Source: Actinomycetota bacterium (GTDB lineage: Bacteria > Actinomycetota > UBA4738 > HRBIN12). From it: a stretch of DNA of 64,000 bases. The notes under the pieces were generated by a model. The model was not told where the DNA came from. It saw nothing but the letters and a program-made list of their open reading frames with translations, and did not search any database. Each line of letters starts with the position of its first letter. Positions within the stretch are counted from its first letter, which is position 1. The position numbers and the translations under genes were made by a program. Where the stretch lies: assembly GCA_035762085.1 (NCBI GenBank), contig DASTPT010000072.1, positions 3,956 to 67,955 on the forward strand, read 5' to 3'. Below, piece by piece: positions 37,910-55,276 of the stretch.

Positions 37910-38905
37910 CTAGCGGTACTCGATCCGGGTGAAGTGCTCGAGCTTCTCGAAGCTGTGCTCGGCCTCGATCCAGCGGACGGTCCCGGTCCGGGAGCGCATC
38001 ACGAGCGAATACGTCGTGGCGCCGTCGGGCCAGTACTTCACCCCTCGGAGCAGAGAGCCGGTCGTGATGCCGGTCGCGGCGAAGAACACGTCGTCCCCCG
38101 ACACCAGTTCGTCCGTCGTGAGGATCTTGTCGAGGTCGTAGCCCTGGTCCTCGAGCAGGCGGTGCTCGTCGTCGTTCCGGGGGAACAGGCGGCCCTGGAT
38201 CGCGCCGCCGAGGCACTTCATCGCGGCCGCGGCGATGACGCCCTCTGGCGTCCCGCCGATGCCGAGCAGCAGGTCGATGCCGGAGCGCCGGGTGGTCGCC
38301 GCGGCGATCGCGCCGGCGACGTCGCCGTCGGTGATCAGGAAGACCTTCGCGCCGATCTCGCGCACCGCCTTGATCATGTCGGTGTGGCGGTCACGGTCCA
38401 AGATCGTGACGGCCATCTCCTCGACGCGCTTCGCCTTCGCCTTCGCGACAAGGCGAACGTTCTCCTCCGGGGGCGCGGTGATGTCGATGACGTCGGCCGC
38501 CTCCGGGCCTGCCGCGACCTTTTCCATGTAGACGGCCGCGCCGGGGAAGAACATCGTGCCGCGCTCGGCGAGCGCGATGACCGAGAGCGCGTTCGGCTGC
38601 CCGACCGAGGTCAGGCGCGTGCCGTCGATCGGGTCGACGGCGACGTCGACGGCCGGTCCGTCGCCGTTGCCGACGGACTCGCCGTTGTAGAGCATCGGCG
38701 CCTCGTCCTTCTCGCCCTCGCCGATCACCACCACACCCTGCATCGAGACGGTGTCGACCATGAGTCGCATGCCGTCAACGGCGGCCTGGTCGGCGGCGAT
38801 CTTGTCCCCGCGGCCGATGAACGGGCCGGCGGCGAGGGCGGCCGCCTCGGTCACGCGGACCAGCTCGATGGCGAGGTTCCGGTCGGGTCGTTGCTCGTCG
38901 GACAT
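37910..38905 (-). CDS. glpX: class II fructose-1,6-bisphosphatase
   Basis: Full-length GlpX similarity ([33 protein letters not shown]). ATG 38905 lies behind AGGAGGGA. This is only the last 332 codons of the 1856-aa track ORF. Confidence 0.93.
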
Positions 38906-38946
38906 CGCGATCCCTCCTGCGCGGACGGGGAGCCGATGGGCCAATC

Positions 38947-39951
38947 CTATGCCGGTGGCTCGAACGGCGCCGGGGCGAGCCCGCGCTTCGCGTACCAGGC
39001 CAGCGTGCGACGGACCGTCGTCTCCATCGGCGTGTACGCGAGCCCCAGCTCGCGCTCGGCGCGCGAGCCGTCGTACCGGTGTCCGTGGAGCAGCGTGCGC
39101 ACCGCCTCGCGGCACAGCGGGAGGTCGCGGCGGACGAGGGCGCCGACCGCCTGTGCCACCTCGCCGGCGGCGGGCACCAGCCAGCGCGGCAGGAAGCGAA
39201 CGTGTTCGGGTCGACCGGTCAGGCCTCGGAGCACCGCGACGGCCTCGCGCACGCCGACCGTGAAGCCGTTCAGCAGATAGCGCTCGCCGGCCACGCCGTC
39301 GGCCTCGGCCAGGAGGTGACCCGCGGTGCAATCCTCGACGTCGACGACCGACAGGGCGGTCTCGACGACCACGGGGAGCCTGCCGTTGACCAGGTCCAGC
39401 AGCAGACGCGCCGAGCCGCTGAGGCGGCCGGGCCCCTGAACCGAGGAGGGGTTCACGCACACGACGTCCAGCTCGAGCTGTCGCGCCCAGCTCGTCACGC
39501 GACGCTCGGCCAGGTGCTTCGAGCGCTCGTAGTGCGAGAGGTACGAGCCGCGATGCGGTGAGTCCTCGCGCCCGACGGTGCCGCGCACCTCGCCGATCGC
39601 GGAGGCCGAGGACGTGTAGACCATGCGGCGTAGGCCGGCCGCGACGGCGGCTCGAACGACGTTGCCCGACCCCTCGACGTTCACACGGTACATCGGGCGC
39701 GGGTCCCGGACGCACATCGCGTTCACGCCGGCGGCATGGAACACGACCTCGCACCCCCGCATCGCCTCGACGAGCGACTCGAGGTGGAGCACGTCGCCCC
39801 GCGCCGGCGTCGCCCCGAGCGATGCGGCGCGCGCGGTCGCGTCCGGGGACCGGGCGAGCGCCCGGACGTCGCGCCCCTGGGCGACCAGGCGCTCGAGGAG
39901 CGCGCCGCCGACGAACCCCGAGCCGCCGGTCACGAGGACGGGACCGGCCAC
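38947..39951 (-). CDS. NAD-dependent epimerase/dehydratase (extended SDR)
   Basis: [14 protein letters not shown] Rossmann motif and YxxxK (YERSKHLAE). Confidence 0.85.
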
Positions 39952-39954
39952 CGA

Positions 39955-40542
39955 CTACTTCTTCGCCGCCCGGGCGGAGCGCGGGATCGAGCCCACGAAC
40001 CGCATCAGGTACTCGACCCCCGAGCCGATCGTCACGAATGCGGCGGCGAGCATCGCCCACTGGTCCAGGTACAGGTCGCCGATCGGCTCGCCCAGGCGCC
40101 AGATCGCGAGCGTGATCGCGACGAACTGGACGTTCGCCTTCAGCTTCCCCCAGATCGATGGCTTCATCACCTCGCCGCCGGCGGCCACCACGCCGCGGAG
40201 GCCGAGGATCAGGAGCTCGCGGCCGACGATGATGAACGCGATCCACGGCGACGCACGACCGACCGCGACGAGCGCCACGAGCACGCCCGAGACGAGCAGC
40301 TTGTCCGCGGTCGTGTCGAGGAAGTTGCCGAGGACCGTGACGCGCTTCCATCGCCGCGCCAGATACCCGTCGAAGAAGTCGGTGATCGCGGCAAAGGCGA
40401 ACAGCCAGCCGGCGATCGCGTAGGCGTGCTCGGTGTCGTCGCCGATCAGGACGAGCCACATGATCACCGGGACGAGGATCGCCCGTAGATAGGTGATCCC
40501 CTCCAGGAAGATCGCGGCGCGTCGATCGGCGGCTTCGCTCAC
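39955..40542 (-). CDS. pgsA: CDP-alcohol phosphatidyltransferase (PgsA-like)
   Basis: D-x2-DG-x2-AR-x8-G-x3-D-x3-D motif present as [26 protein letters not shown]. Confidence 0.85.
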
Positions 40543-40584
40543 GGGCGCTCCGCCCGCATCCTACCCCGCGGGGCGCGGCGGCCC

Positions 40585-43059
40585 TCAGTCGGCCTCGCGT
40601 GCAACCAGCTCGCGTACGGCCTCCGCGCTCGGGAGCTCGAGGGCGTGGGCCGCGAGCTCGCGCGCCCGACCGAGGTCGACGCCCCGCACGACCCGCTTCA
40701 CGCCGGGGATCGCCGGGGCGCTCATCGAGAGCTCGGTCACGCCCAGGCCGAGGAGCAATGGCGTCGCCGCCTCGTCGCCGGCCAGCTCGCCGCAGACGCC
40801 GACCCACCGACCGTGCTCCACCGCCGCCGCGCACGTCGACCCGATCAGGCGCAGCACGGCGGGGTGCAACGCGTCCGAGAGCGCGGCCACGCGCTCGTTC
40901 CCGCGGTCGGCCGCGAGCGTGTACTGCGTGAGGTCGTTCGTCCCGATGGAGAAGAAGTCGGCCTCCGGCGCGAGCGCCGACGCGGTGAGCGCGGCCGACG
41001 GAACCTCGACCATGATGCCGACCTGCAACCCCGCCGGAAGCGGGACGCCGAGACCTTCCGCCGCAGCGCCCACCGCCGCACGCGCCGCACGGAGCTCCTC
41101 GACCGTGGCGACCATCGGGAACATCAGGCGGATGGGATGGTCGGCCGCAACCCGGAGGATCGCGCGCAGCTGCGTCACCAACAGCTCGGGGCGCTCGAGC
41201 CCGAGCCGCAGGCCGCGCATCCCGAGGAAGGGGTTCGCCTCGCGCGGCTGCGCCAGGTACGGGAGCGGCTTGTCCGCGCCGACGTCGAGCGTACGCACGA
41301 CCATCGGCCGCCCGCGGAGCGTTTCCGCCGCTCGCCGGTACGCCGCCTCCTGCTCGTCCTCCGAGGGCATCTGCCCGCGCTCCATGAACAGGAACTCGGT
41401 GCGGAAGAGCCCGACGCCGTCGCAGCCCGCCTCGACGGCGGCACCGACCTCCTCCGGGGAGCCGACGTTCGCCGCCACCTCCACCGTCACGCCGTCGACG
41501 GTGACCGCCGGCGCCTGCGCCTCCGCGCGGGCCGAGCGGTCCGCCTCGGCGCGGGCGCGCCGGCGCTCCTCGAGTTCGGCGGTCACTTCGGCCGAGGGCT
41601 CCACGTGCAACAGCCCGGCGTCGCCGTCGAGCGCGAGCGCGGTCCCCTCGGCGATCTCCAGCGCGCGGTCTCCGAGACCCACGACCGCCGGGATCCCGAG
41701 CGATCGCGCCAGGATCGCGGCGTGCGACGTGGGCCCGCCGAACGCGGTCGCGATGCCGAGCGCGAGCGCCGGGTCGAGCCCGGCCGCATCGGCCGGCGTG
41801 AGATCGGGGGCCACGAGGATGCCCGGCCCCTCGAGCCTCGGCCTCGGCGCCGGCACCCCGAGGAGGTGCGCGAGCACCTGCAGGCCGACGCTGCGGAGGT
41901 CGGCCGCACGGGCGCGCATGTAGTCGTCCTCGAGCGCCTCCCACTCGGCCGCCATCGCCTCGACCGCCGCGCTCCACGCGGTCGGCGCGTCGCGGCCCCG
42001 GTCCCGGATCTCGGCGCGGACGGGGTCGAGCAGCATCTCGTCCTGCAGGAACAACCGGTGGGCGTCGAAGATCGCCGCCTGGTACTCGCCGGCGCGGCCG
42101 GCCACGGCCGCGCGCTGCGCGTCGATGTCCACCGCCGTGGCCTCGAGCGCATCCTGCAGCGCCCGGGCCTCGACGGCGGGATCCGTCGCCTCGCGCTCGG
42201 GGAACTCGAGGACCGGCGGCCGGAACCGCCGTGCGACGCCGAGCGCCACGCCCGGCGAGGTGGCCACGCCGGCGAGCGCGCCGGCGGGCGCCGCGGGTCC
42301 CGACGCGGTCACGACCGGCTCCTCGACGGTCCGCTCGTCGAAGCCGCGGTCGGCGAGCCCGCGCACGGCCTCGAGCGCCCGATCCGCCTCGGGGCCCGTT
42401 GCGAAGACCTCGATCTCGTCCCCCCTGGCGACGCCGAGCGTGGCGACCGCGTTCAGGCTCCGCGCGGTCACCGGCCCGCGCCCGCCGCTCACGTTGGCGA
42501 CACGGACGTCGGCGTCGAACCCCGAGGCGATCTGGACGAACCGGGCCGCCGGCCGGGCGTGCAGGCCGTGCGGGTTCTCGACGACGAGGCGGACCGAGCG
42601 GGCCTGCCCCGCGTCGAAGGCCGCCGGCGCCTCGGTCGGCGCGGCTTCGCCGCCGCCGAGGTGGGCGATCTTCGGCGCCAGCCCGCCGCGCGCCTCCGCG
42701 GCCACCTGCTCGGCGCTCGCGCCGAGCTTGGCCGTGACGGCCGCCGCGACTGCCCCCTCGACGAACGGCGCCTCGCAGAGGAGGACCTTCCCGCGCTTGT
42801 CCTCGGGCAGCATCTCGAGGGCCATCTCGGCCGACAGGACCGCGCTGCCCAGGTCCATGAGGACGACCACGCCGTCGTCGGACCATGCGCGCTCGATCGC
42901 GGCTACGACCAGGACGGCATCGGTTCCAACGGGGTGATCGGGCGCGTCCAGTCCGCCGGCGGTCTCGAGCTTGACCTCGGGCCCGCCCATCTCGCGCGCC
43001 AGCTCGGCCGCGCCCTCGGCCAGCTTCCAGCTGTGCGAGACGAGGACGAGCCCGACCAC
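40585..43059 (-). CDS. dhaM: DhaM multiphosphoryl transfer protein: EIIA(Man)-like + HPr + complete Enzyme I
   Basis: N-terminal [13 protein letters not shown] (DhaM/EIIA-Man). HPr domain [16 protein letters not shown] domain with [21 protein letters not shown] and C-terminal PEP-utilising [12 protein letters not shown]. Confidence 0.9.
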
Positions 43060-43068
43060 GGCGAGGCC

Positions 43069-43470
43069 TCAGGCGCGCGTCGCGAGCGTGCCGACGAGGA
43101 AGAAGCCGTACGCGACCGTCGCGATGCCGAGCACCCACAGCCCCAGGTCGATCCGGCGCCGGGCGCGCCCGCTGAACCCCATGTCCAACAGGACGGCGCG
43201 GAGGCCCAGCAGGGCGTGGGTCGTGACGGTGACGAGGAAGAAGCACTCCACCGTGAAGATCAGCGGGCTGGCGATGTAGTCCAGCACCTGCTGGTACGAG
43301 CGCAGCCCCCCCACCTCCTGGACGACGAAGTGATGGGCGATCATGTGCACGACCAGCAGCACGAGCAGCGCCACGCCCGTGATGACGGTCCAGCGCCACA
43401 CGCGGACGGACTTGCCGCCGGGGATCGGGCGACGCTTCGTGGGGACGGGGCGGGTCGGGGCGACGTCCAT
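43069..43470 (-). CDS. SdhD-like hydrophobic membrane anchor subunit
   Basis: 133 aa with three TM segments and His residues inside helices ([18 protein letters not shown]). A 2-nt gap separates it from the upstream anchor gene. Confidence 0.7.
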
Positions 43471-43472
43471 CC

Positions 43473-43922
43473 CTACTCACCCCCCAGGACGTGGATCGCG
43501 CTGTAGACCAGGAGGGTCGTCCCGATCACGGTGAAGGCCCAGAACAGGGCCTTCTGCCGGTCGGGGACGACCCCCGTGCCGACGAGCGCGACGCGCACGC
43601 CGTTCAGGCCGTGGAACAGGATGCCGAAGATGAGCAGGACGTCGAGCAGCAGGAACACCGTGTTCGTCGCCAGCTCGACGAAGTCGTTCCACATCGACTC
43701 CCCGACGAGCAGCATCGAGAGCACGGCGAGGTGCAGGTAGAGGTAGAAGACGAGGCCGAGGCCCGTGATCCGGTTCGCCGCGAACGCCCACGACCCGATC
43801 GTGCGGCCGCGCGGGTCGAACCAGCCGGTCGGCGTGACCCCGATACCCTTGCGCAGCACCGGCCCTCGGCGTGACCGCTCCTCGCTGCCCGGGATCTGAT
43901 CGGTGGTCGTCGGCTGGCTCAT
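43473..43922 (-). CDS. SdhC-like cytochrome b membrane anchor subunit
   Basis: 149 aa with three TM segments containing His ([19 protein letters not shown]). ATG 43922 overlaps the Fe-S subunit stop (ATGA), with GGAGGG upstream. Confidence 0.7.
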
Positions 43923-44686
43923 CGGATTCCCTCCATCCGATCCGGGGTCACGAGCGCGCCGCCGGTGAGCACGCCGCGGAGCGCCATGATCCGGGCGGCG
44001 GGGTTCACGTTCGAGGGGCAGGCCTCGCTGCACTCGAAGGCCGCGTGGCAGCGCCACACGCCGTCCGGCTCGTCGGCCCAGTTGAGCAGCCCGGTGATGT
44101 CGGCGCCGCGTGGCTCCTCGTGCATCCGCTGTGCAGCGGCGAGCGCGGCCGGGCCGACGTAGCGGTCGGTCGTCGCCGCGATCGGACACGCGGACAGGCA
44201 CAGGCCGCACTCGATGCAGTCCTCGTAGCGGATGTACGTGGGGATGCCGTCCGGCGTCGTGGCCTCGGCGTTGAACTCGCTCGAGCGCACGTACGGGTAC
44301 TCGTCCGGGAATCGCGCGTAGAACTCGTCCATGTCCACCACGAGATCGGCCAGCACGGGGACGTTCGCGATCGGCTCGACGGTGATGTCCAGCCCGAGGT
44401 CGTGCACGTCCGTCACGCACATCAGGACCTCGCGGCCGTTCACGCGCACACCGCAGGTGCCGCACGAGGCGTGGAAGCACGAGTGCCGCAGCATCAACGA
44501 CGGGTCCTGGTGGAGCTGGATCCACTTCAGCGCGTCGAGGAGCGTCATCCGCTCGGCGAGCGGCACGTCGAACGTGTCGACGTGCGAGGCCTCGTCGCCT
44601 CGCTTGTACCGGAAGACGTGGAACCGCCGGGACTCGGTCGCCCCGGCTGCGGCTGGCTGGTCGGTTGCGGTCTGCACGGCGCTCAC
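43919..44686 (-). CDS. succinate dehydrogenase/fumarate reductase-type iron-sulfur subunit
   Basis: 2Fe-2S motif SCFHASCGTCGVRVNGREVLMC, 4Fe-4S motif CIECGLCLSACP, 3Fe-4S motif CHAAFECSEACP. Confidence 0.9.
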   Translation of the reverse strand: MSAVQTATDQPAAAGATESRRFHVFRYKRGDEASHVDTFDVPLAERMTLLDALKWIQLHQDPSLMLRHSCFHASCGTCGVRVNGREVLMCVTDVHDLGLDITVEPIANVPVLADLVVDMDEFYARFPDEYPYVRSSEFNAEATTPDGIPTYIRYEDCIECGLCLSACPIAATTDRYVGPAALAAAQRMHEEPRGADITGLLNWADEPDGVWRCHAAFECSEACPSNVNPAARIMALRGVLTGGALVTPDRMEGIR

Positions 44687-44687
44687 C

Positions 44688-45869
44688 TCAGGCGGCGGAG
44701 TAGTAGGCGGTGTGGGGGAGCAGGACGGTGTCGCGGGTCCTGCACTCGGCCTCGATGCCGAGCTTGCCGCAGATCACGTTCGCGCAGAGCTCGGCCATGC
44801 CTCGGAGCGTGGTGCCCTTGCCTCCCGTGATCGTGACGAACCCCTCGACGCCGTCGGACTCCCTGTGATCGAAGGTCTTGAAGGTGCGAGACAGCTCGCG
44901 TCCGGTGTCGGCCTCGCCCCGCGAGCCGATGAGGGGCCGGGCGGCCGACCACGCTGCACGGAACTCGGCGCGGCTCACGGCGGGGACGAGCTTCGCGCCC
45001 TCCTCGTACATCCGCTGCACGTGGTCCTCCGGCACCCCGAGGTCGTCCGGATCCTCCACGGTCCAGGAGCTGGTCCCGACGACCGAGAGCCCGCGCTGCG
45101 GAACGATGATGTCGCCGTCGCCCGACTTGTGGAGCCGGTTCAGCACCATGTTGCACAGGCGGCCCCGCAACGCCAGGAGCACACCTGGCGACGGGCGGAT
45201 CGGGACGTCCACTCCGGCCATCCGCGCGATGTGCTCGGACCACGGCCCGGTGGCGTTCACGACGATGTCGGCGCGGATCGTCCCCTCCTTGCCGGTGACG
45301 TGATCGCGCACCACGGCGCCGGACACGACGCGATCGGTGACGACCAGGTCCAGCACCTCGATGTAGGGATGGATCGATGCCCCGTTGTGTTTGGCCGTGG
45401 CGAAGAACCGCAGTGGCATCCGCATAGCGTCCATCGTGCCGTCCGGGATCCGCACGGCAGCCTTCAGCTCCGGGTTCAGGTTCGGCTCGAGCGCGAGCGC
45501 CTCGGAGGGTGTGAGCTGCTGCGTCGGGATGCCGCTCTCGGCGCACCCCTTGAGGAAGGGCTCGAGGTACTCCATGTCCTCGTCGTCGATCGCCACGAAC
45601 AGGCCGTCGTTCTCCTCGAACGAGCCGGGGCAGATCCGGCGGAGGATCATGTTCTCCTCGATGCACTCGACGGCGGACTCCTGGTCCCCGACGGCGTAGC
45701 GCGCCCCGCTGTGGAGGAGCCCGTGGTGGCGGCCCGTCGTCCCCGAGGTCACCTCCCCGCGCTCGACGAGCGTGACCTTCAGGCCGCGGAGCGTGAGGTC
45801 GTGCGCGAGCGCCCCCCCGGTCCCTCCGCCGCCGACGATCAGGATGTGTGCGGGCGCGGTGACGGACAC
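44688..45869 (-). CDS. glpA: FAD-dependent glycerol-3-phosphate dehydrogenase, GlpA-like short form
   Basis: ILIVGGGGTGGALAHDL and TSGTTGRHHGLLHSGARYAV match the GlpA/GlpD N-terminal signatures. 393 aa with no C-terminal Cys-rich domain. GTG 45869 lies behind GGGAGG. Confidence 0.88.
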   Translation of the reverse strand: MSVTAPAHILIVGGGGTGGALAHDLTLRGLKVTLVERGEVTSGTTGRHHGLLHSGARYAVGDQESAVECIEENMILRRICPGSFEENDGLFVAIDDEDMEYLEPFLKGCAESGIPTQQLTPSEALALEPNLNPELKAAVRIPDGTMDAMRMPLRFFATAKHNGASIHPYIEVLDLVVTDRVVSGAVVRDHVTGKEGTIRADIVVNATGPWSEHIARMAGVDVPIRPSPGVLLALRGRLCNMVLNRLHKSGDGDIIVPQRGLSVVGTSSWTVEDPDDLGVPEDHVQRMYEEGAKLVPAVSRAEFRAAWSAARPLIGSRGEADTGRELSRTFKTFDHRESDGVEGFVTITGGKGTTLRGMAELCANVICGKLGIEAECRTRDTVLLPHTAYYSAA

Positions 45870-45927
45870 GGCTCATCGACCTCCCGAGCGCCCCGGCGCC
45901 GAGGCGACCCGAGGCCCGACGTGCGAA

Positions 45928-45950
45928 GGGGCGGGCAGATCGCCCGCCCC
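45928..45950 (-). terminator. GC hairpin (9-bp stem GGGGCGGGC/GCCCGCCCC, 5-nt loop) between the small repeat-protein gene and the glpA-like gene
   Basis: Perfect inverted repeat read directly from the sequence. No U-tract, so terminator function is uncertain. Confidence 0.35.
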
Positions 45951-46056
45951 ACCACGGACGACGCCCCCGAACTCTCCGGACGTGCGTCCCATACGGACCG
46001 AGTGTGCCATCGGCGTCGGGGAGCGACGCGGGACGGTCGCCCCCTCCGGCGCCGGA

Positions 46057-46260
46057 CTATCGCTCCTTCTGGCCCTCGGCGAACCCGGTCTTGCGGTGCG
46101 CCTCCTCGTCGTGATCCATCTCCTGGCCCTCGGCGAAGTTGCCGTGGTGCTCGTCGTGCTCCTGATGGCCCGATTGCTGCCCCTCGGCGAAGTCGCCGTC
46201 GTGGCGCTTCTCGTCGCGGGACTCCTGTCCCTCGGCGAAGTTCCCGTGCTCGTCGCCCAT
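46057..46260 (-). CDS. 67-aa His/Asp/Glu-rich protein with four G-x-FAEGQ repeats, unknown function
   Basis: ATG 46260 lies 6 nt after GGAGGTGG. Third codon positions are G/C-rich. Sequence: MGDEHGNFAEGQESRDEKRHDGDFAEGQQSGHQEHDEHHGNFAEGQEMDHDEEAHRKTGFAEGQKER. Confidence 0.65.
   Translation of the reverse strand: MGDEHGNFAEGQESRDEKRHDGDFAEGQQSGHQEHDEHHGNFAEGQEMDHDEEAHRKTGFAEGQKER
46069..46239 (-). repeat. in-frame coding tandem repeat (units spaced 54/54/48 nt) encoding FAEGQ
   Basis: Plus-strand core CTG(G/C/T)CCCTCGGCGAA starts at 46069, 46123, 46177 and 46225. Confidence 0.8.
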
Positions 46261-46374
46261 GTTCCACCTCCGTCGTCGATGCGACACGTGTCCGTATACC
46301 CGGGGTGGCCGGGCGTTACGCGCTCGGGACGGGTTCGTGCGTGGCGGTACGTCACGGTTGCGTCTCCCGCTCGG

Positions 46375-46438
46375 GCGACCGGCCCCGAGCCGGTCGCGCC
46401 GCCGGCGGGGGCGGCGGCGCAGTGGCCGCCCCCGCCGG
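46375..46438 (-). terminator. tandem GC hairpins directly downstream of glpK
   Basis: 14-bp perfect stem 46402-46415/46425-46438 (CCGGCGGGGGCGGC...GCCGCCCCCGCCGG, 9-nt loop) plus an 8-bp stem GCGACCGG/CCGGTCGC at 46375-46397. The first hairpin begins 11 nt after the glpK stop. No U-tract. Confidence 0.5.
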
Positions 46439-46448
46439 GCGCGCGTCC

Positions 46449-47951
46449 CTACTCCTGCTCGACCCAGTCGAACGTGCGGGTGACGGCCTTCTTCCACAGG
46501 CCGTACTCCCGCTCGACCTCGTCCTTGGGCATCTTGGGGTCCCACTCCTTGTCCTTGCCCCAGTTCGCCCGCAGGTCCTCGACCTCCTTCCAGAACCCGA
46601 CCGCGAGTCCCGCGGCGTATGCGGCTCCGAGCGCGGTCGTCTCCGCGACCGTCGGACGGATCACCGGCACGCCGAGGACGTCGGCCTGGAACTGCATCAG
46701 GAGCTCGTTGTAGACCATGCCGCCGTCGACCTTGAGGGCCGTCAGCGCGACGCCGGAGTCGGCGTTCATCGCGTCGAGCACCTCACGGGTCTGCCACGCG
46801 GTGGCCTCGAGGGTCGCCCGGGCGATGTGCCCCTTGTTGACGTACCGGGTGAGGCCCGCGATGACGCCGCGAGCGTCGTTCTTCCAGTACGGGGCGAACA
46901 GGCCCGAGATCCACGGAACGAAGTAGATCCCGCCGTTGTCCTCGACGGTCGCGGCGAGTGCCTCGATGTCGGGGGACTTCTCGATCATCCCGAGGTTATC
47001 GCGCAGCCACTGCACGAGCGCTCCGGTGATGGCGATCGAACCCTCCAGGCAGTACACGGCTGGCTGGTCGCCGATCTTGTAGCCGAGCGTCGTGAGCAGA
47101 CCGCTCTTCGACGGCACGGGCGAGGTGCCCGTGTTGAGCAGCATGAAGCAGCCCGTCCCGTACGTGTTCTTCGCCTCACCGGTGGAGAAGCACGTCTGGC
47201 CGAACAGGGCCGCCTGCTGGTCGCCGAGGTCTCCGGCGACGGGGATGCCGGCGAGGTCGCCGACGGCCGTGCCGTAGACATCGCTCGAGGGACGGACGGC
47301 GGGCAGCATCGCCCGCGGGATCCCCATGACGCCGAGGATCTCGTCGTCCCAATCCAGCGTCTCCAGGTTCATGAGCATGGTCCGGCTGGCGTTCGACACG
47401 TCGGTGACGTGCGCGCCACCGTCGGGGCCACCCGTCAGGTTCCAGATGCACCATGTGTCGATGTTGCCGAACAGGACCTCGCCGGCCTCGGCCTTGGCCC
47501 GCACACCCTCGACGTTGTCGAGGATCCACTTGACCTTCGGCCCCGAGAAGTAGGTCGCGAGCGGCAGACCGGTCTTCGGGCGAAGCCGGTCCTGGCCCCC
47601 GTCCTTGGCGAGCTCGTTGCAGATCTGATCGGTCCGGGTGTCCTGCCAGACGATCGCGTTGTGGACGGGCTTGCCGGTGGCCTTCTCCCACACCACGGTG
47701 GTCTCGCGCTGGTTCGTGATGCCGACGGCGGCGAGATCGCTCGCCTTCAGCTTCGTGTTCGCCAGCCCGCCCTTGATGACCTCCTGGCTGCGCGTCCAGA
47801 TCTCGTCCGCGTCGTGCTCCACCCAGCCCGGCTTCGGGTAGATCTGCTCGTGCTCCTTCTGGTCGATCCCGACCACCTTGCCCGAGTGGTCGAAGATCAT
47901 GAACCTGGTGCTGGTGGTGCCCTGGTCCAGGGCGCCTACGTAATCAGCCAT
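46449..47951 (-). CDS. glpK: glycerol kinase
   Basis: [15 protein letters not shown] and full-length FGGY-family GlpK similarity (500 aa). Confidence 0.97.
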
Positions 47952-47979
47952 CTGTCCTCCTTTTCCGGTCGGGTCGTCT

Positions 47980-48618
47980 TCATCCGCCGCCGCTCCAGGA
48001 ATCCGCCGCCGCCTTCAGGAGCAGGTAGGAAGACGTGGCGCCCGGGTCCTGGTGGCCGGCGCTGCGTTCGCCCAGGTAGCTCGCCCGACCCTTCCGAGCC
48101 ACCCATGGGATGGTTGCCTTCATGCCCTCCTCGGCCGCCTCGGCCGAGCGCCGGAGGGCCTCGGGGAACGCCTCGCCCTCGTCGACGGCCTTGCGGAAGG
48201 CGTCGCGCGCGGGGATGAGCGCGTCGACCATCGTCTTGTCGCCCGGCTCCGCCTTGCCGCGCATCTGCACGCCCTCCACGCCCTTCTCCAGCGCGAGCGC
48301 CCAGTCGGCCGGCTCCAGGTCGGCCTTGCCGGCCGTGGCCGTGCCGAACTGGAGGAACAGCGTCCCGTACAGCGGACCGCCGGCGCCCCCGACGGTCGAG
48401 ACCAGCGTCATCCCGACCGTCTTCAGCAGCCCGCCGATGTCGCCGTTCGGCACGCCCTCGACCTTGCCGAGCACGGCCTGCATGCCGCGGTTCATGTTGA
48501 TCCCGTGGTCTGCGTCCCCGATCGCCGAGTCGAGCTGGGTGAGGTACTCCTTGTTCTCCGCGATGACGTCGGCGAACGACCGCACCCAGCGGACCGCGTC
48601 CTCGAAGGACACGCTCAC
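47980..48618 (-). CDS. dhaL: dihydroxyacetone kinase ADP-binding subunit
   Basis: [27 protein letters not shown] and [24 protein letters not shown] 48618 lies behind GGGGGTGG. Confidence 0.93.
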
Positions 48619-48640
48619 CTGCCACCCCCTATCGAGGGAC

Positions 48641-48671
48641 CCCGCCCCCGCGGCGGAGCCGCGGGGGCGGG
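48641..48671 (-). other. perfect 13-bp GC hairpin in the dhaK-dhaL intergenic spacer
   Basis: CCCGCCCCCGCGG cggag CCGCGGGGGCGGG lies between the dhaK stop (48689) and the dhaL Shine-Dalgarno. Confidence 0.5.
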
Positions 48672-48688
48672 ACCGCGCTCGGTGTCGA

Positions 48689-49690
<1,002 letters not shown>

Positions 49691-49748
49691 CTGTGTGCTC
49701 TCACCTCCGAACTCGACGGGGCCCCTCGGTTCGGAAAGCCCGAGCCTC

Positions 49749-50480
49749 TTACCACGTCACCGCCGTCAGCAGCCAATCCGCTGCGAGCGCGCCAAGCACG
49801 CCGCCGATGATCGGGCCGACGACCGGCACCCAGCTGTAGCCCCAGTCCGAGTCACCCTTGCCGGCGATCGGCAGGATGAAGTGCATGATGCGCGGACCGA
49901 GGTCTCGAGCCGGGTTGATCGCGTACCCCGTGGGGCCGCCGAGCGACATGCCGATGACGAGGACGAGGATGCCGACCGCGAACGGGCCACCGACATTTCC
50001 GCCGAGGCCCTGGGGCGCGAGCGCGATCACACCGAACACCAGCACGAACGTCCCGATGATCTCGGTGATCAGGTTCATGCCGTAGTTGCGGATCGCCGGG
50101 CCCGTCGAGAAGACGGCCAGCTTGAGCCCCGGGTCCTCGGTCTCCGGCCAGTGCGGCAGGTAGGCGAGCCAGACCAACAGCGCGCCGATGAACGCCCCGA
50201 CGAACTCGCCGGCGATCAGCTCGAGCACCTCGCTGAACTCGTCGATGCCCCCGAACTCGACCGCGAAGAAGCCCAGCGTGACCGCGGGGTTCAGGTGGGC
50301 GACGCCGTCGGTCACGGCGATGCTCGCGATCACGCCCATGAACACGGCCATGCCCCACGCCCAGGTGATGACGACCCAGCCGGAGTTCTGCGCCTTCGAC
50401 TTGTTGAGCAGGACACCGGCGACCACGCCGTCACCGAGCAGGATCAGCACGGCTGTGCCAACCACTTCGCCCATGAACAT
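49749..50480 (-). CDS. glpF: aquaglyceroporin / glycerol uptake facilitator
   Basis: Two NPA boxes ([17 protein letters not shown]) and six TM segments. ATG 50480 lies behind GAGGGGGTGG. The track start is 50519. Confidence 0.92.
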
Positions 50481-50677
50481 GGCGACCAACCACCCCCTCG
50501 TCGGTGCCCGGGCGGGCACCCGGGGTAAATGAACCTTGTTCGAATACCCATGTCAAATCCAACCGGCCCTCGAAACTCGGGCAAGATGACCGATTGTCGT
50601 TCGACTGCGCTGAACAGGGACGACGGCTTGCGCCGCAATTGTTGACAGGGAACCGGCGCCGGGGCAGGGTTGCGTCC
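50481..50677. promoter_or_regulatory. divergent promoter/operator region between glpF and the dhaL paralogue
   Basis: The longest and visibly most AT-rich intergenic stretch of the window. Contains TTGACA at 50642-50647 and several TTCGA-containing half-site-like words (TTGTTCGAATA, TTGTCGTTCGAC, TGAACAG). No transcription start can be assigned. Confidence 0.4.
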
Positions 50678-51370
50678 GTGAGCGGTTCGGCGCCGCGCCG
50701 TGGCGGGACGGGGACCGACGAGGGAGCGCTCCTCCTGGACGCCTCGTTCGTCCGCTCCTGGATCCGGGCCGCGGCCGTCGACCTGGCCGCTCATCGAGAC
50801 TACCTGACCCAGCTCGACGCCGCGATCGGCGACGCGGACCATGGCGTGAACATGGACCGCGGCTTCTCCTCGGCGCTCCTCGCCCTGGAGGGCGACGATG
50901 CCTCGCCGCCGGGGCGCCTGCTCGAGGCGGTCGGCAACGCGATCGTGTTCAAGGTGGGTGGCGCCTCCGGGCCGCTCTACGGGACGGCGTTCCGCGGCGC
51001 CGCCTCCGCGCTGGGGGAGGCCGAGAGCTTCGGCGGGGAGGACCTGCTCCTCGCGCTCCGCTCGGCGCTCGATGGCATCCAGCGTCTGGGCGCGGCCGTC
51101 GAGGGCGACAAGACGATCGTGGACGCATGGATCCCCGCCGTGGCCGCGTTCGAGCGCGAGCTCCGCAGCGGCGGCTCGGTGGCCGACGCGTCCGCAAGGG
51201 CCGCGGTCGCCGCCGAGGAGGGCGCCCGCGAGACCGTGCCGATGCAGGCCCGGAAGGGCCGCGCCTCGTACCTGGGGCCGCGCAGCGTCGGGCACCAGGA
51301 TCCGGGGGCGACCTCGTCCGCGATGCTGTTCTCGGCGCTCGGGCGGACCACGCGCGAGCTGGCCGTCTGA
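50678..51370 (+). CDS. DhaL-domain paralogue (orphan, no adjacent DhaK)
   Basis: [27 protein letters not shown] and [21 protein letters not shown] are all retained. The start (GTG 50678) is uncertain. Confidence 0.85.
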   Translation: MSGSAPRRGGTGTDEGALLLDASFVRSWIRAAAVDLAAHRDYLTQLDAAIGDADHGVNMDRGFSSALLALEGDDASPPGRLLEAVGNAIVFKVGGASGPLYGTAFRGAASALGEAESFGGEDLLLALRSALDGIQRLGAAVEGDKTIVDAWIPAVAAFERELRSGGSVADASARAAVAAEEGARETVPMQARKGRASYLGPRSVGHQDPGATSSAMLFSALGRTTRELAV

Positions 51371-51449
51371 CCTCCGGTCGGTCGCGGGGCACGTCGCGGC
51401 CGCGGAGGGTCTAGTCTGGCTCCGATGGTCGGGGCGGCCAGGTGACGGG

Positions 51450-52250
51450 GTGACGGCGGAGCGCGGAACGATCCAGTCGGTGGAGCGCGCCGCGCGCATC
51501 CTCCGCGAGCTCGGGTCCGGAGCCGCCCGCCTCGGCGTCACCGAGCTCTCCGAGCATCTGCATATCGCGAAGGGGACGGTCCACGGGCTCCTGCGCACGC
51601 TCGAACGGCAGGAGTTCGTGGAGCAGGACCCCGAGACCGGCAAGTATCGGCTCGGCCCCGCGATGCTGCAGCTCGGGAACGCCTACCTGGACGCGCATGA
51701 GCTCCGCTCGCGGTCGCTGCTGTGGGCCGACTCGCTCGCGGGACGCGTCACCGAGGCGGTGCGAGTGGGCGTGCTGAACGGCCCCAGCGTCCTGATCGTC
51801 CACCACGTCTTCCGGCCCGACGACTCGGTGCAGATCCTGGAGGTCGGGGCCTCGATCCCGTGGAACGCCAGCGCCCTCGGCAAGGCCATCGTCGCGTACG
51901 TCGAGCCCGAACGACGGGCGGCGCTCCTGTCGGGCGAGCTCCGCCGGCTCACGGGCAGGACGATCGTGGACGGGGCGGAGCTCGGCGCGTCCCTCGAGCA
52001 GGTCGTCGAGACCGGCCTCGCGACCGAGGATCAGGAGGGCATCGTCGGCGAGGCCGAGATCGCCGCCCCGATCTTCGACCACCGCGGCGCGCCGATCGGG
52101 GCGATCGGGATCGCCGGCCCGGTCGAGCGGTTGCTCCCCGACGGCCCGGACGAGCAGCTCGCGGCGGCGGTCAAGCAGGCGGCCCGCGGTCTCTCGCGCG
52201 AGATGGGCGCGGGGCGCGGGGCGCCGCGCGCGGCCGGACGCGGCGGGTAG
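51450..52250 (+). CDS. IclR family transcriptional regulator (GylR-like by context)
   Basis: IQSVERAARILRELG...GVTELSEHLHIAKGTVHGLLRTL HTH plus an IclR effector domain. GTG 51450. Confidence 0.9.
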   Translation: MTAERGTIQSVERAARILRELGSGAARLGVTELSEHLHIAKGTVHGLLRTLERQEFVEQDPETGKYRLGPAMLQLGNAYLDAHELRSRSLLWADSLAGRVTEAVRVGVLNGPSVLIVHHVFRPDDSVQILEVGASIPWNASALGKAIVAYVEPERRAALLSGELRRLTGRTIVDGAELGASLEQVVETGLATEDQEGIVGEAEIAAPIFDHRGAPIGAIGIAGPVERLLPDGPDEQLAAAVKQAARGLSREMGAGRGAPRAAGRGG

Positions 52251-52258
52251 CCTCGAGC

Positions 52259-53188
52259 GTGGCCGAGCCGACCTCGGCGACGCGGACCGGCGGCGCGACC
52301 CGGCTGCCTCCCGCACGCCTGCTCGGGTTGCTCGTCCTAGGCGTCGTCTCGGTCGCGTTCTCGTCGATCCTCATCCGGGCCGCCGAGGCCCCGGCGATGT
52401 CCATCGCCTTCTACCGGAACGCCATCGCCGCAGCCATCCTGCTGCCGATCGCGCTCGTGCGGCACCGCGACGAGTTCCGGTCGCTCGATCGGCGCGGATG
52501 GGGGACGGCGCTGCTCGCGGGGGCGCTCCTGGCGGCTCACTTCGCGTTGTGGATCCCCTCGCTCTCGTACACGACCGTGGCCGCGAGCACCGTGCTCGTG
52601 ACGACGACGCCGGTCTGGGTAGCACTCGTGGGCCGGGCGATGGGGGAGCGCGTCAGCCGGAGCACCGGCGTCGGGATCGGGCTCGCGCTCGCGGGCGCTG
52701 TGCTGATCTCGGGTGGCGACTACGGCGTGTCGGCCCGAGCTGCGTTCGGCGATCTGCTGGCGCTCGCGGGGGCCGTGGCGGCCGCAGGCTACCTGCTCGC
52801 TGGGCGATCGCTGCGCCAACGGATCTCGCTCACGACGTACACGGGGATCGCGTACACGACGACGGCGGCGATCCTGGCGCTCGTCGTGGCCGCGAGCGAG
52901 GCCTCGTTCACCGGGTTCGAGCCGCGCGTCTGGGCCTTGTTCGTCCTCATGGCGCTGGTCCCCCAGATCGGCGGGCACACGGTGTTCAACTACCTGCTCG
53001 GGCACGTCCCGGCCGGCACGGTCGCGATCGCCGTGACGGGGGAGCCCGTGGTCGCCTCGGCGCTCGCGCTCGCGTTCTTCGGCGAGGTGCCGGCGTGGAG
53101 CGCGGTCGCCGGCGGCGCCGCGATCCTCGCCGGGATCTGGGTCGTGATCCGGACCGAGGCACGCGCGCGGAGCGGCCCGACGGGCTGA
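52259..53188 (+). CDS. DMT/EamA family transporter
   Basis: About 10 TM segments in two EamA-like halves. GTG 52259 lies 8 nt after the IclR stop. Confidence 0.85.
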   Translation: MAEPTSATRTGGATRLPPARLLGLLVLGVVSVAFSSILIRAAEAPAMSIAFYRNAIAAAILLPIALVRHRDEFRSLDRRGWGTALLAGALLAAHFALWIPSLSYTTVAASTVLVTTTPVWVALVGRAMGERVSRSTGVGIGLALAGAVLISGGDYGVSARAAFGDLLALAGAVAAAGYLLAGRSLRQRISLTTYTGIAYTTTAAILALVVAASEASFTGFEPRVWALFVLMALVPQIGGHTVFNYLLGHVPAGTVAIAVTGEPVVASALALAFFGEVPAWSAVAGGAAILAGIWVVIRTEARARSGPTG

Positions 53189-54061: not shown

Positions 54062-55276
54062 TCACGCGGGCAGCTCGAACCGCTCGGCCGCGTGCGCCGC
54101 CAGCACGCGCCCGATCGCGAGGCTGGCCGTCGCCGCGGGCGACGGTGCGTTGCGCACGTGCAGGATGCGCTCGGAGGCCTGGACCGAGAAGTCGTCGGCC
54201 AGCTCGCCGCCCTCGAGCACCGTCTGCGCCCGGATGCCGCTCGGTCCCCACGCCACGTCGGACTCGCCCAGCTCGGGCACGAGGCGCCGGCACGCCGCGA
54301 CGAAGGCGGCCTTCGAGACGTCTCGCCGCATCTCGGCCAGGCCGGCGCGCCAGTAGCGGCGCGCCAGACGGAGGAACCCCGGGTACACGAGGGTCGCGGC
54401 GGCGTCTCGAGGATCGAGGGCGAGGCGCGAGTATCGCTCGCGCGCGAGCGCCAGCACGGCGTTCGGCCCGGCCCACACCTCGCCGTCGATCCGCCTGGTG
54501 AAGTGCACGCCCAGGAACGGGAAGGCGGGGTCGGGGACCGGGTACAGGAGTCCGCGGACGAGCTCGCGCGCGTGGGGGAGCAACGCGAGGTAGTCGCCGC
54601 GGAACGGCACGATGCGCATGAGCTCGGGCGCGCCGCTCATCCGCGCCACGCGGTCGGACTGCAGCCCGGCGCACGAGATCACGTTGTGGGTGAGGATCGG
54701 ACCGCGCGAGGTCTCGACGACGATCTCGTGCTCCATCCGCTCGATGTCGGTGACGCGATGCCCGAGCAGGACCCGTCCGCCGCGCGACCGGATCTCGTCC
54801 GCGTAGGCCAGGGCGACACGCCGGAAGTCCACGATGCCGGTCTCGGCGAGGTGGAGCGCGCGGACGCCCGCCGCGTACGGCTCGATCTCGCGGATGCGCT
54901 CGGGGCCGATCTCCTCCAGGCCGCGCAGGCCGTTCGCCTCGCCCCGAGCCTTCAGGTCGGCCAGGCGCGACAGCTCGCCCCCGTCGACCGCCACGACGAG
55001 CTTGCCGCAGCGCTCGAACGGGATGTCGTGCTCCTCGCAGAAGCGCTCGAGGGCGTCCTTGCCCTCCCGGCAGAGGCGCGCCTTCAGCGAGCCCGGGGCG
55101 TAGTACAGCCCGGCGTGGATGACCCCGGAGTTGCGTCCGCTCTGGTGGAGCGCGAGGTCGTGCTCCTTCTCGATCACCGCGAGGCGGAGACCGGGCCGAC
55201 TTGCGAGGAGCCGGTAGGCGGTCGCGAGGCCGACGATCCCCCCGCCCACGATCACCACGTCGTATCGCTCGCTCAC
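54062..55276 (-). CDS. lhgO: L-2-hydroxyglutarate oxidase/dehydrogenase (FAD)
   Basis: YDVVIVGGGIVGLATAY and HQSGRNSGVIHAGLYYAPGSLKA match LhgO. GTG 55276. Confidence 0.88.
   Translation of the reverse strand: MSERYDVVIVGGGIVGLATAYRLLASRPGLRLAVIEKEHDLALHQSGRNSGVIHAGLYYAPGSLKARLCREGKDALERFCEEHDIPFERCGKLVVAVDGGELSRLADLKARGEANGLRGLEEIGPERIREIEPYAAGVRALHLAETGIVDFRRVALAYADEIRSRGGRVLLGHRVTDIERMEHEIVVETSRGPILTHNVISCAGLQSDRVARMSGAPELMRIVPFRGDYLALLPHARELVRGLLYPVPDPAFPFLGVHFTRRIDGEVWAGPNAVLALARERYSRLALDPRDAAATLVYPGFLRLARRYWRAGLAEMRRDVSKAAFVAACRRLVPELGESDVAWGPSGIRAQTVLEGGELADDFSVQASERILHVRNAPSPAATASLAIGRVLAAHAAERFELPA

Follow-up and report, generated by a model that had tools for sequence, protein, structure and literature searches.

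Carbon from glycerol and from lipids enters respiration through glycerol-3-phosphate (G3P) dehydrogenases, and the textbook solutions to this step in bacteria are GlpD, GlpABC and GlpO. The DNA analysed here is a 64,000-nucleotide stretch of contig DASTPT010000072.1 from a soil-type Actinomycetota bacterium (assembly GCA_035762085.1), called the window below. It raises the question of which enzyme is formed when a gene for a short GlpA-type flavoprotein is followed directly by three genes of the succinate dehydrogenase (complex II) type. The four genes very probably encode a single membrane-bound G3P:menaquinone oxidoreductase, in which a GlpA-type catalytic subunit is carried by the electron-transfer and anchor module of complex II. 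Their products are written here as GlpA', SdhB', SdhC' and SdhD'. The window has a G+C content of about 72%, and its nearest protein relatives are found in Actinomycetota and Solirubrobacteraceae metagenome-assembled genomes (MAGs). The four genes, all on the minus strand, are as follows.

44688-45869, minus strand: glpA', truncated GlpA-type subunit with flavin adenine dinucleotide (FAD), 393 amino acids (TIGR03377, 440.8 bits)
43919-44686, minus strand: sdhB', SdhB/FrdB-type iron-sulfur subunit, 255 amino acids (TIGR00384, 194 bits)
43473-43922, minus strand: sdhC', membrane anchor 1, 149 amino acids, three transmembrane segments (PF01127, 42.3 bits)
43069-43470, minus strand: sdhD', membrane anchor 2, 133 amino acids, three transmembrane segments (PF01127, 43.7 bits)

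Gene Order and Junctions

The junctions between these genes were read from the sequence. glpA' and sdhB' are separated by a 1-nt spacer (TGA-g-GTG), sdhB' and sdhC' overlap in ATGA with GGAGGGA in front, and sdhC' and sdhD' are divided by a 2-nt gap (TAG-gg-ATG). The GTG start of the next gene, dhaM, follows sdhD' after 9 nt. A tblastn search with E. coli queries gave no match to SdhA or GlpB in the whole 64 kb. No glpC gene was found there either, and the sole match of E. coli GlpC was a segment of 75 amino acids inside the ferredoxin region of SdhB'.

An earlier note, made from the letters of this stretch, had described a flavoprotein of 393 amino acids with GlpA/GlpD signatures that is shorter than E. 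coli GlpA and has no BFD extension. It had placed a complete SdhB/FrdB-type protein with three cluster motifs and two anchors of 149 and 133 amino acids with haem-type histidines behind it, and had noticed neither glpB nor glpC after glpA' nor any SdhA. The open reading frames (ORFs) of all four genes and the three junctions proved exact, and every other detail was confirmed by the searches above and the protein analyses below.

The Flavoprotein Subunit

GlpA' contains the signatures HILIVGGGGTGGALAHDL and TSGTTGRHHGLLHSGARYAV and matches the DAO family (PF01266) with 170 bits. On the GlpA model TIGR03377 it reaches 440.8 bits (E = 6.5e-132). The match covers the first 378 of the 530 model positions and stays below the cut-off of 552.8 because the C-terminal third of the protein is missing. 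A further test for full-length GlpA also gave a score under its cut-off (382.7 vs 425). GlpD is the next-best family with 84 bits against a cut-off of 360, and no other family scored higher. GlpA' shares 42% identity with residues 11-386 of E. coli GlpA over 377 residues and 24% with GlpD, and in the tree it branches inside the GlpA radiation and not with GlpD. The check proposed earlier, whether the flavoprotein groups with GlpA, thus came out in favor of GlpA.

The part that is absent from GlpA' is the electron-exit region. Pfam analysis found neither the DAO_C domain nor the BFD [2Fe-2S] domain (PF04324) in GlpA', whereas E. coli GlpA (542 amino acids) has Fer2_BFD at 432-484. The chain of GlpA' ends 43 residues past the GGK lysine, compared with 189 residues in E. 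coli GlpA. The other proteins of the short clade with intact ends stop 40-55 residues past this lysine, and one ORF truncated by a contig end stops after 12. The AlphaFold2 model of GlpA' (predicted local distance difference test 91, predicted template modelling score 0.90) shows a complete DAO fold with no extra domain and a terminal helix of five residues at 387-391. The best structural matches of this model in Foldseek were GlpD (TMq 0.83, range 0.80-0.83) and GlpO (0.82). R57, Y58, R311, R328 and K351 of GlpA' align with R54, Y55, R317, R332 and K354 of GlpD and show at least 95% conservation across 76 proteins of the short clade. These GlpD residues presumably form the substrate site of PDB 2QCU, in agreement with the match in numbering.

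The Iron-Sulfur Subunit

SdhB' consists of a Fer2_3 domain (94.7 bits) and a Fer4_8 domain (44.9 bits) and passes the cut-off of TIGR00384 (194 bits vs 88). Its scores with family members are 135 bits for E. coli FrdB (1kf6_B), 119 bits for SdhB and 112 bits for SdhB of Mycobacterium smegmatis Sdh2. SdhB' falls below the cut-off of every more specific SdhB/FrdB model, for example with 193 vs 228, 176 vs 344 and 166 vs 333.

The cluster motifs of SdhB' are C70-x4-C75-x2-C78-x11-C90, C157IEC160GLC163LSAC167P and C213HAAFEC219SEAC223P. The protein holds only 11 cysteines, and all of them are ligands of the [2Fe-2S], [4Fe-4S] and [3Fe-4S] clusters that align with the ligands of E. coli SdhB. These 11 cysteines are kept in at least 73 of 75 aligned SdhB sequences (those of 73 related loci, the window and E. 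coli), and the misses consist of alignment gaps, one glycine and the aspartate of E. coli SdhB at the third 2Fe-2S position. His214 of SdhB', which lies beside a 3Fe-4S ligand, aligns with His207 of E. coli SdhB, presumably a quinone-site residue. It is kept in 92% of the forms with anchors, while the anchorless SdhBs described below have D, E or R at this position.

The Membrane Anchors

Both anchors exceed the Sdh_cyt (PF01127) cut-off of 25.8 bits, with scores of 42.3 and 43.7, and each has three hydrophobic segments in most orthologs. The best solved match of both is SdhC of M. smegmatis Sdh2 (6lum_C), with 47 bits for anchor 1 and 34.5 bits for anchor 2. In the 6LUM structure, the ligands of haem bP are His D107 and His C87, and those of haem bD are His D65 and His C47 (PMC7447783). 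H64 and H104 of anchor 1 and H42 and H85 of anchor 2 align with His C47 and His C87 of 6LUM, and they are invariant in 33-36 orthologs. Because these four invariant histidines of axial type, in helices I/II and IV/V, align with haem ligand positions, they point to an anchor dimer with two haems. H42, H47, H85 and D96 of SdhD' are invariant or at least 90% conserved. Arg51 of SdhC' is conserved and aligns with Arg31 of E. coli SdhC, and Asp96 of SdhD' aligns with Asp82 of E. coli SdhD.

Distribution of the Gene Set in Bacteria

An alignment of the short-form GlpA clade was used as the query for a scan of one genome per species. The sample consisted of the top 80 loci (1,059,775 bases), all bacterial, of which 77 carry a short GlpA and three a long GlpA. 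An SdhB-like gene lies immediately 3' of the short GlpA in 73 of the 77 loci. Three of the other four run off the contig edge, and one has an unrelated ORF. The distance from the glpA stop to the first conserved SdhB codon is within 118 nt in 70 of the 73 loci. The long GlpAs of the scan (L080, L081 and L083) are followed by glpB and glpC. The synteny therefore recurs well beyond one genome, in several phyla, which answers the second check proposed in the earlier note. The one complete locus without SdhB is in an Anaerolineaceae genome (L077, 7986-9961, on a 2.68-Mb contig), where the short glpA stands right after glpK and is followed by an unrelated ORF of 252 amino acids.

GlpA' and SdhB' have co-evolved. 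Their distance matrices are correlated with a Mantel r of 0.83, which was reached in 0 of 999 permutations, and the same clades appear in both trees. The four-gene form glpA'-sdhB'-sdhC'-sdhD' was found in 35-36 loci, all of Actinomycetota or Chloroflexota, the latter including Anaerolineae, Ardenticatenia, Chloroflexia and Limnocylindrales. A cultured carrier of this form is Thermanaerothrix solaris 4228-RoL (Chloroflexota; L032). A two-gene form, glpA'-sdhB' with no hydrophobic ORF 3', occurs in Spirochaetota, Desulfobacterota and a few other groups. The 11 cysteines of SdhB are kept in both forms alike. The anchorless two-gene loci are:

L031, L035-L037, L039-L041, L043, L044, L046-L052, L055, L057-L063, L065-L067, L069-L074, L076, L078, L082, L087

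The linkage to SdhB is specific to the clade of the window, because other short DAO clades are without it. P0148 is an archaeal CoxG-type short GlpA from a clade of 434 amino acids with CoxG nearby, and it stands apart from the window clade in the tree. The short forms P0260 and P0236 stand by themselves in unrelated surroundings, P0162 has no SdhB neighbor in its context, and the contigs of P0200 and P0124 are too short to show neighbors. No GlpA-SdhB fusion was found among 150 representatives. The proteins of 900-1000 amino acids join GlpA to GlpB instead, and P0255 is apparently a chimera of fragments. The plasmid collection held only canonical GlpA with at most 44% identity, and no Thermofilum name was present in the clusters of 30 representatives.

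Several single loci were observed in addition. In L022 (8001-15045), L038 (1333-10797) and L047 (3692-9906), the short glpA-sdhB module has as its neighbor a canonical glpA-glpB(-glpC) set with a long glpA. These three genomes thus have both systems, and neither is a simple replacement of the other. L006 (JBLMXP010000126.1) is labelled Planctomycetaceae, but the whole of its glpF-dhaKL-glpK-glpA'-sdhB'C'D'-dhaM cluster shares about 80% identity with the clusters of Actinomycetota and is nested among these in both trees. The contig was probably mis-binned. In L090 (7001-9842, 70.7% G+C), a short glpA follows a four-subunit pyruvate:ferredoxin oxidoreductase. In the GlpA tree, the product of this glpA (P0132) is the full-length protein that branches closest outside the clade of the window. 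The gene is followed by sdhB, an ORF of 57 amino acids and a weak Sdh_cyt gene of 96 amino acids, the product of which may be a reduced anchor.

A split succinate dehydrogenase would explain the gene set in another way. SdhB', SdhC' and SdhD' would then serve a distant SdhA or FrdA, and the short GlpA' would be an independent peripheral G3P dehydrogenase encoded next door. The score of SdhB' as a full member of the SdhB/FrdB family is in line with this explanation, but SdhB' fails all models of that family at the equivalog level. Short GlpA and SdhB are paired in 73 loci from four or more phyla, with almost no space between the genes. Their trees agree with each other, and neither the window nor the 1.06 Mb of sequence flanking the 80 related loci has an SdhA or FrdA homolog. 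Moreover, GlpA' alone, having lost its electron-exit domain, has no obvious acceptor. A split enzyme is therefore considered highly improbable.

The Glycerol Operon and the Substrate

The four genes are part of a single compact minus-strand unit of ten genes (40585-50519), as determined by ORF and domain analysis. The order of this glycerol operon is glpF-dhaK-dhaL-glpK-small ORF-glpA'-sdhB'C'D'-dhaM. The six genes around the module, all on the minus strand, are listed in the order of transcription.

49749-50519, minus strand: glpF, glycerol facilitator, 256 amino acids, first gene of the operon (PF00230 MIP, 122 bits; position matched in the related loci L004-L013)
48689-49690, minus strand: dhaK, dihydroxyacetone kinase subunit K, 333 amino acids (PF02733 Dak1, 449 bits)
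47980-48618, minus strand: dhaL, dihydroxyacetone kinase subunit L, 212 amino acids (PF02734 Dak2, 195 bits)
46449-47951, minus strand: glpK, glycerol kinase, 500 amino acids, supplier of G3P (FGGY_N, 262 bits; FGGY_C, 168 bits)
46057-46260, minus strand: small ORF, 67 amino acids, with the Shine-Dalgarno sequence GGAGGTGG upstream
40585-43059, minus strand: dhaM-HPr-EI fusion, 824 amino acids, phosphoryl donor of DhaKL, last gene of the operon (EIIA-man, PTS-HPr and PEP-utilizer domains; TIGR01417, 509 bits; TIGR02364, 132 bits)

In most four-gene loci, glpK is immediately 5' of the short glpA. A dhaM gene follows the anchors also in L004-L014, L032, L033, L042 and L056. We infer from this setting and from the family of GlpA' that G3P is the substrate. 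The same four-subunit complex could in principle act on a different substrate, such as another phosphorylated polyol or a 2-hydroxy acid, with the resemblance to GlpA reflecting ancestry. The specificity of DAO-family enzymes is hard to deduce from sequence, and in many anchorless two-gene relatives glpK is not within 8 kb. Against this, in the window and in most four-gene loci the module follows glpK immediately within a glpF-glpK operon. The positions that match the presumed substrate site of GlpD are conserved as described above, and the GlpA model gives 441 bits compared with at most 84 bits for any other family. These points make a substrate other than G3P very unlikely.

Proposed Route of Electrons

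In the proposed pathway, glycerol would enter the cell via GlpF and would be phosphorylated by GlpK, and the FAD of the truncated GlpA' would oxidize G3P to dihydroxyacetone phosphate (DHAP). GlpA' has no [2Fe-2S] exit domain of the BFD type, so electrons would be handed from its FAD to the N-terminal [2Fe-2S] domain of SdhB', which would take over the role of the lost GlpA cluster. They would then continue through the [4Fe-4S] and [3Fe-4S] clusters to a dimer of SdhC' and SdhD' with two b haems and, from there, to menaquinone at a proximal or distal site. We infer that the four subunits assemble physically for this purpose.

The redox potentials of the two couples are about -190 mV for G3P/DHAP and about -74 mV for menaquinone, and the reaction of G3P with menaquinone is therefore exergonic. 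The same established values are unfavorable for a reverse operation, in which the complex would act as a menaquinol:DHAP reductase and make G3P for lipid synthesis. A gene for a CDP-alcohol phosphatidyltransferase at 39955-40542, two genes downstream, and the reversibility of complex II enzymes speak for such a role. However, the operon is catabolic (glpF, glpK and dhaKLM), and bacterial G3P normally comes from the NAD(P)H-dependent GpsA. The chance that the complex runs in reverse is thus extremely small.

Several points weigh against a G3P:menaquinone oxidoreductase of this composition. We know of no biochemical or structural evidence for any member of the GlpA-SdhBCD architecture and of no solved precedent of a DAO-fold flavoprotein docked on SdhB. 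The proximal quinone site is only partly conserved: His214 of SdhB', Arg51 of SdhC' and Asp96 of SdhD' are present, and equivalents of Trp164 of E. coli SdhB and Tyr83 of E. coli SdhD are absent. Finally, shared vertical descent of neighboring genes could partly account for the congruence of the trees. Nevertheless, the reading of glpA-sdhBCD as a G3P:quinone oxidoreductase, put forward in the earlier note, was supported by each of the computational tests proposed there that were run.

A broader proposal is offered tentatively and is rather unlikely to hold in full. GlpA'-SdhB'C'D' may represent a distinct and widespread class of bacterial respiratory G3P dehydrogenases, in which the iron-sulfur and di-haem module of complex II was captured by a DAO-fold flavoprotein. 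Unrelated dehydrogenases could then use the complex II scaffold as an exchangeable "plug-in". The di-haem anchor could carry electrons across the membrane to a distal menaquinone site and so link the reaction to the membrane potential, unlike GlpD and GlpABC. In Spirochaetota and Desulfobacterota, the GlpA'-SdhB' pairs without anchors, in which the quinone-site histidine is lost, would be soluble and pass electrons to an acceptor other than quinone.

Other Features of the Operon and Its Surroundings

The 579-bp gap between glpK and glpA' is occupied by the small ORF. Its product is rich in His, Asp and Glu, begins with MGDEHGNFAEGQ and has four G-x-F-A-E-G-Q repeats, and its Shine-Dalgarno sequence GGAGGTGG is strong. 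ORFs with such repeats are located at the equal position in L004, L006-L014 and L030. The small ORF matched no NCBIfam family, and its product may bind metal, assist assembly or have an unrelated role.

The operon holds both glycerol routes: GlpK with the G3P dehydrogenase, and the phosphoenolpyruvate-dependent dihydroxyacetone kinase DhaKLM, which comes with an EI-HPr-EIIA fusion of its own. The examined stretch of 38000-52300 showed no gene for a glycerol dehydrogenase. A second dhaL-like gene (50504-51370, plus strand; TIGR02365, 212 bits) is divergent from glpF, and its product is extended by about 80 amino acids at the N terminus. A minus-strand copy of this extra gene is found just 5' of glpF in L004-L013. 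The next gene, at 51468-52247 on the plus strand, belongs to the IclR family (HTH_IclR and IclR_C) and may regulate the glycerol operon. Outside the glycerol unit, at about 54065-55260 on the minus strand, lies another FAD oxidoreductase of the DAO family (PF01266, 215 bits; 27% identity to E. coli GlpA over 218 amino acids). An Rfam search over 42500-51500 gave no match, and a promoter and terminator scan showed no excess over chance.

Significance

The GlpA-SdhBCD module is predicted to be a fourth bacterial solution to G3P oxidation. The survey shows that it is no peculiarity of archaea: it is the standard enzyme of glycerol operons in Actinomycetota and Chloroflexota lineages that are common in environmental metagenome assemblies. 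Annotation pipelines name the flavoprotein "FAD-dependent oxidoreductase", and, judged from the family scores, the remaining subunits would probably be annotated as "succinate dehydrogenase iron-sulfur/cytochrome b subunit". As a result, metabolic reconstructions of MAGs may miss a G3P dehydrogenase and miscount succinate dehydrogenase. The module is also a natural experiment in the modularity of complex II, with a DAO-fold flavoprotein in place of the SdhA-fold flavoprotein on the same iron-sulfur and haem wire. Thermanaerothrix solaris 4228-RoL is in culture, and the prediction is therefore directly testable. The breadth in bacteria, the predicted di-haem anchor, the anchorless variant and this cultured carrier together form a concrete target for such tests.

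Comparison with Known Systems

An arrangement called "GlpA-SdhBCD (T. pendens)" was presented by Schmerling et al. (2025, Commun Biol 8:539, PMC11962113, Fig. 9b) from genome comparison only, and this independent inference of the architecture speaks for the reading given here. In Thermofilum-related archaea, counterparts of sdhB, sdhC and sdhD follow glpA, and the only enzyme characterized in that study was Sulfolobus GlpA-CoxG (PMC11962113). The earlier note knew of no characterized enzyme with this architecture. Lack of a precedent stands only for characterized enzymes and, within the searchable literature, for bacteria, because the architecture had already been described in T. pendens. Full-text literature searches gave no bacterial description of GlpA-SdhBCD beyond this paper and its preprint. 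The module of the window is a bacterial version of an architecture already predicted in archaea, and its distribution is much wider than had been reported. The canonical glpA of bacteria was said to co-occur consistently with glpB and glpC (PMC11962113). The survey contradicts this co-occurrence rule and shows that it is not general.

The T. pendens type (Tpen_1127, A1RZ95) likewise has glpA followed by sdhB-, sdhC- and sdhD-like genes, and it was also inferred from genomes only (PMC11962113). The C-terminal extension of its GlpA is almost absent, and the last element of the DAO fold is a helix of 5-6 residues (PMC11962113, supplement), comparable to the last helix of the window model at 387-391. 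The Thermofilum type is archaeal, whereas that of the window is bacterial (Actinomycetota), and the two were compared by published description. GlpA-CoxG of Sulfolobus acidocaldarius (Saci_2032/2031) is also a truncated GlpA type without BFD and with a membrane partner other than GlpBC, and it is the only truncated type with biochemical data. However, its partner is a small CoxG without iron-sulfur clusters or haem, and its clade of about 434 amino acids is separate from the window clade in the tree.

E. coli GlpABC has a homologous FAD domain, the same substrate context and an iron-sulfur exit to menaquinone, as is proposed for the module. The BFD [2Fe-2S] domain of the 542-amino-acid E. coli GlpA has no counterpart in GlpA', and the partners differ. 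In E. coli they are the flavoprotein GlpB and GlpC (two [4Fe-4S] clusters and CCG domains, with no integral anchor and no haem), whereas SdhB-, SdhC- and SdhD-type proteins are encoded in the window. The aerobic GlpD of E. coli (2QCU) shares with GlpA' the fold (TMq 0.80-0.83), the aligned residues of the presumed substrate site and the quinone-reducing role proposed here. In contrast to the module, GlpD, with 24% identity, is a monotopic homodimer that reduces quinone directly through its C-terminal domain and has no iron-sulfur or haem subunits.

M. smegmatis Sdh2 (6LUM) is an actinobacterial complex of the menaquinone type, and its three iron-sulfur clusters and four axial histidines have equivalents at aligned positions in the window proteins. 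Its dehydrogenase subunit has the SdhA/FrdA fold, whereas the module has a DAO-fold GlpA type and no SdhA. The two also differ in energetics: the reduction of menaquinone is endergonic from succinate, as in Sdh2, and exergonic from G3P.

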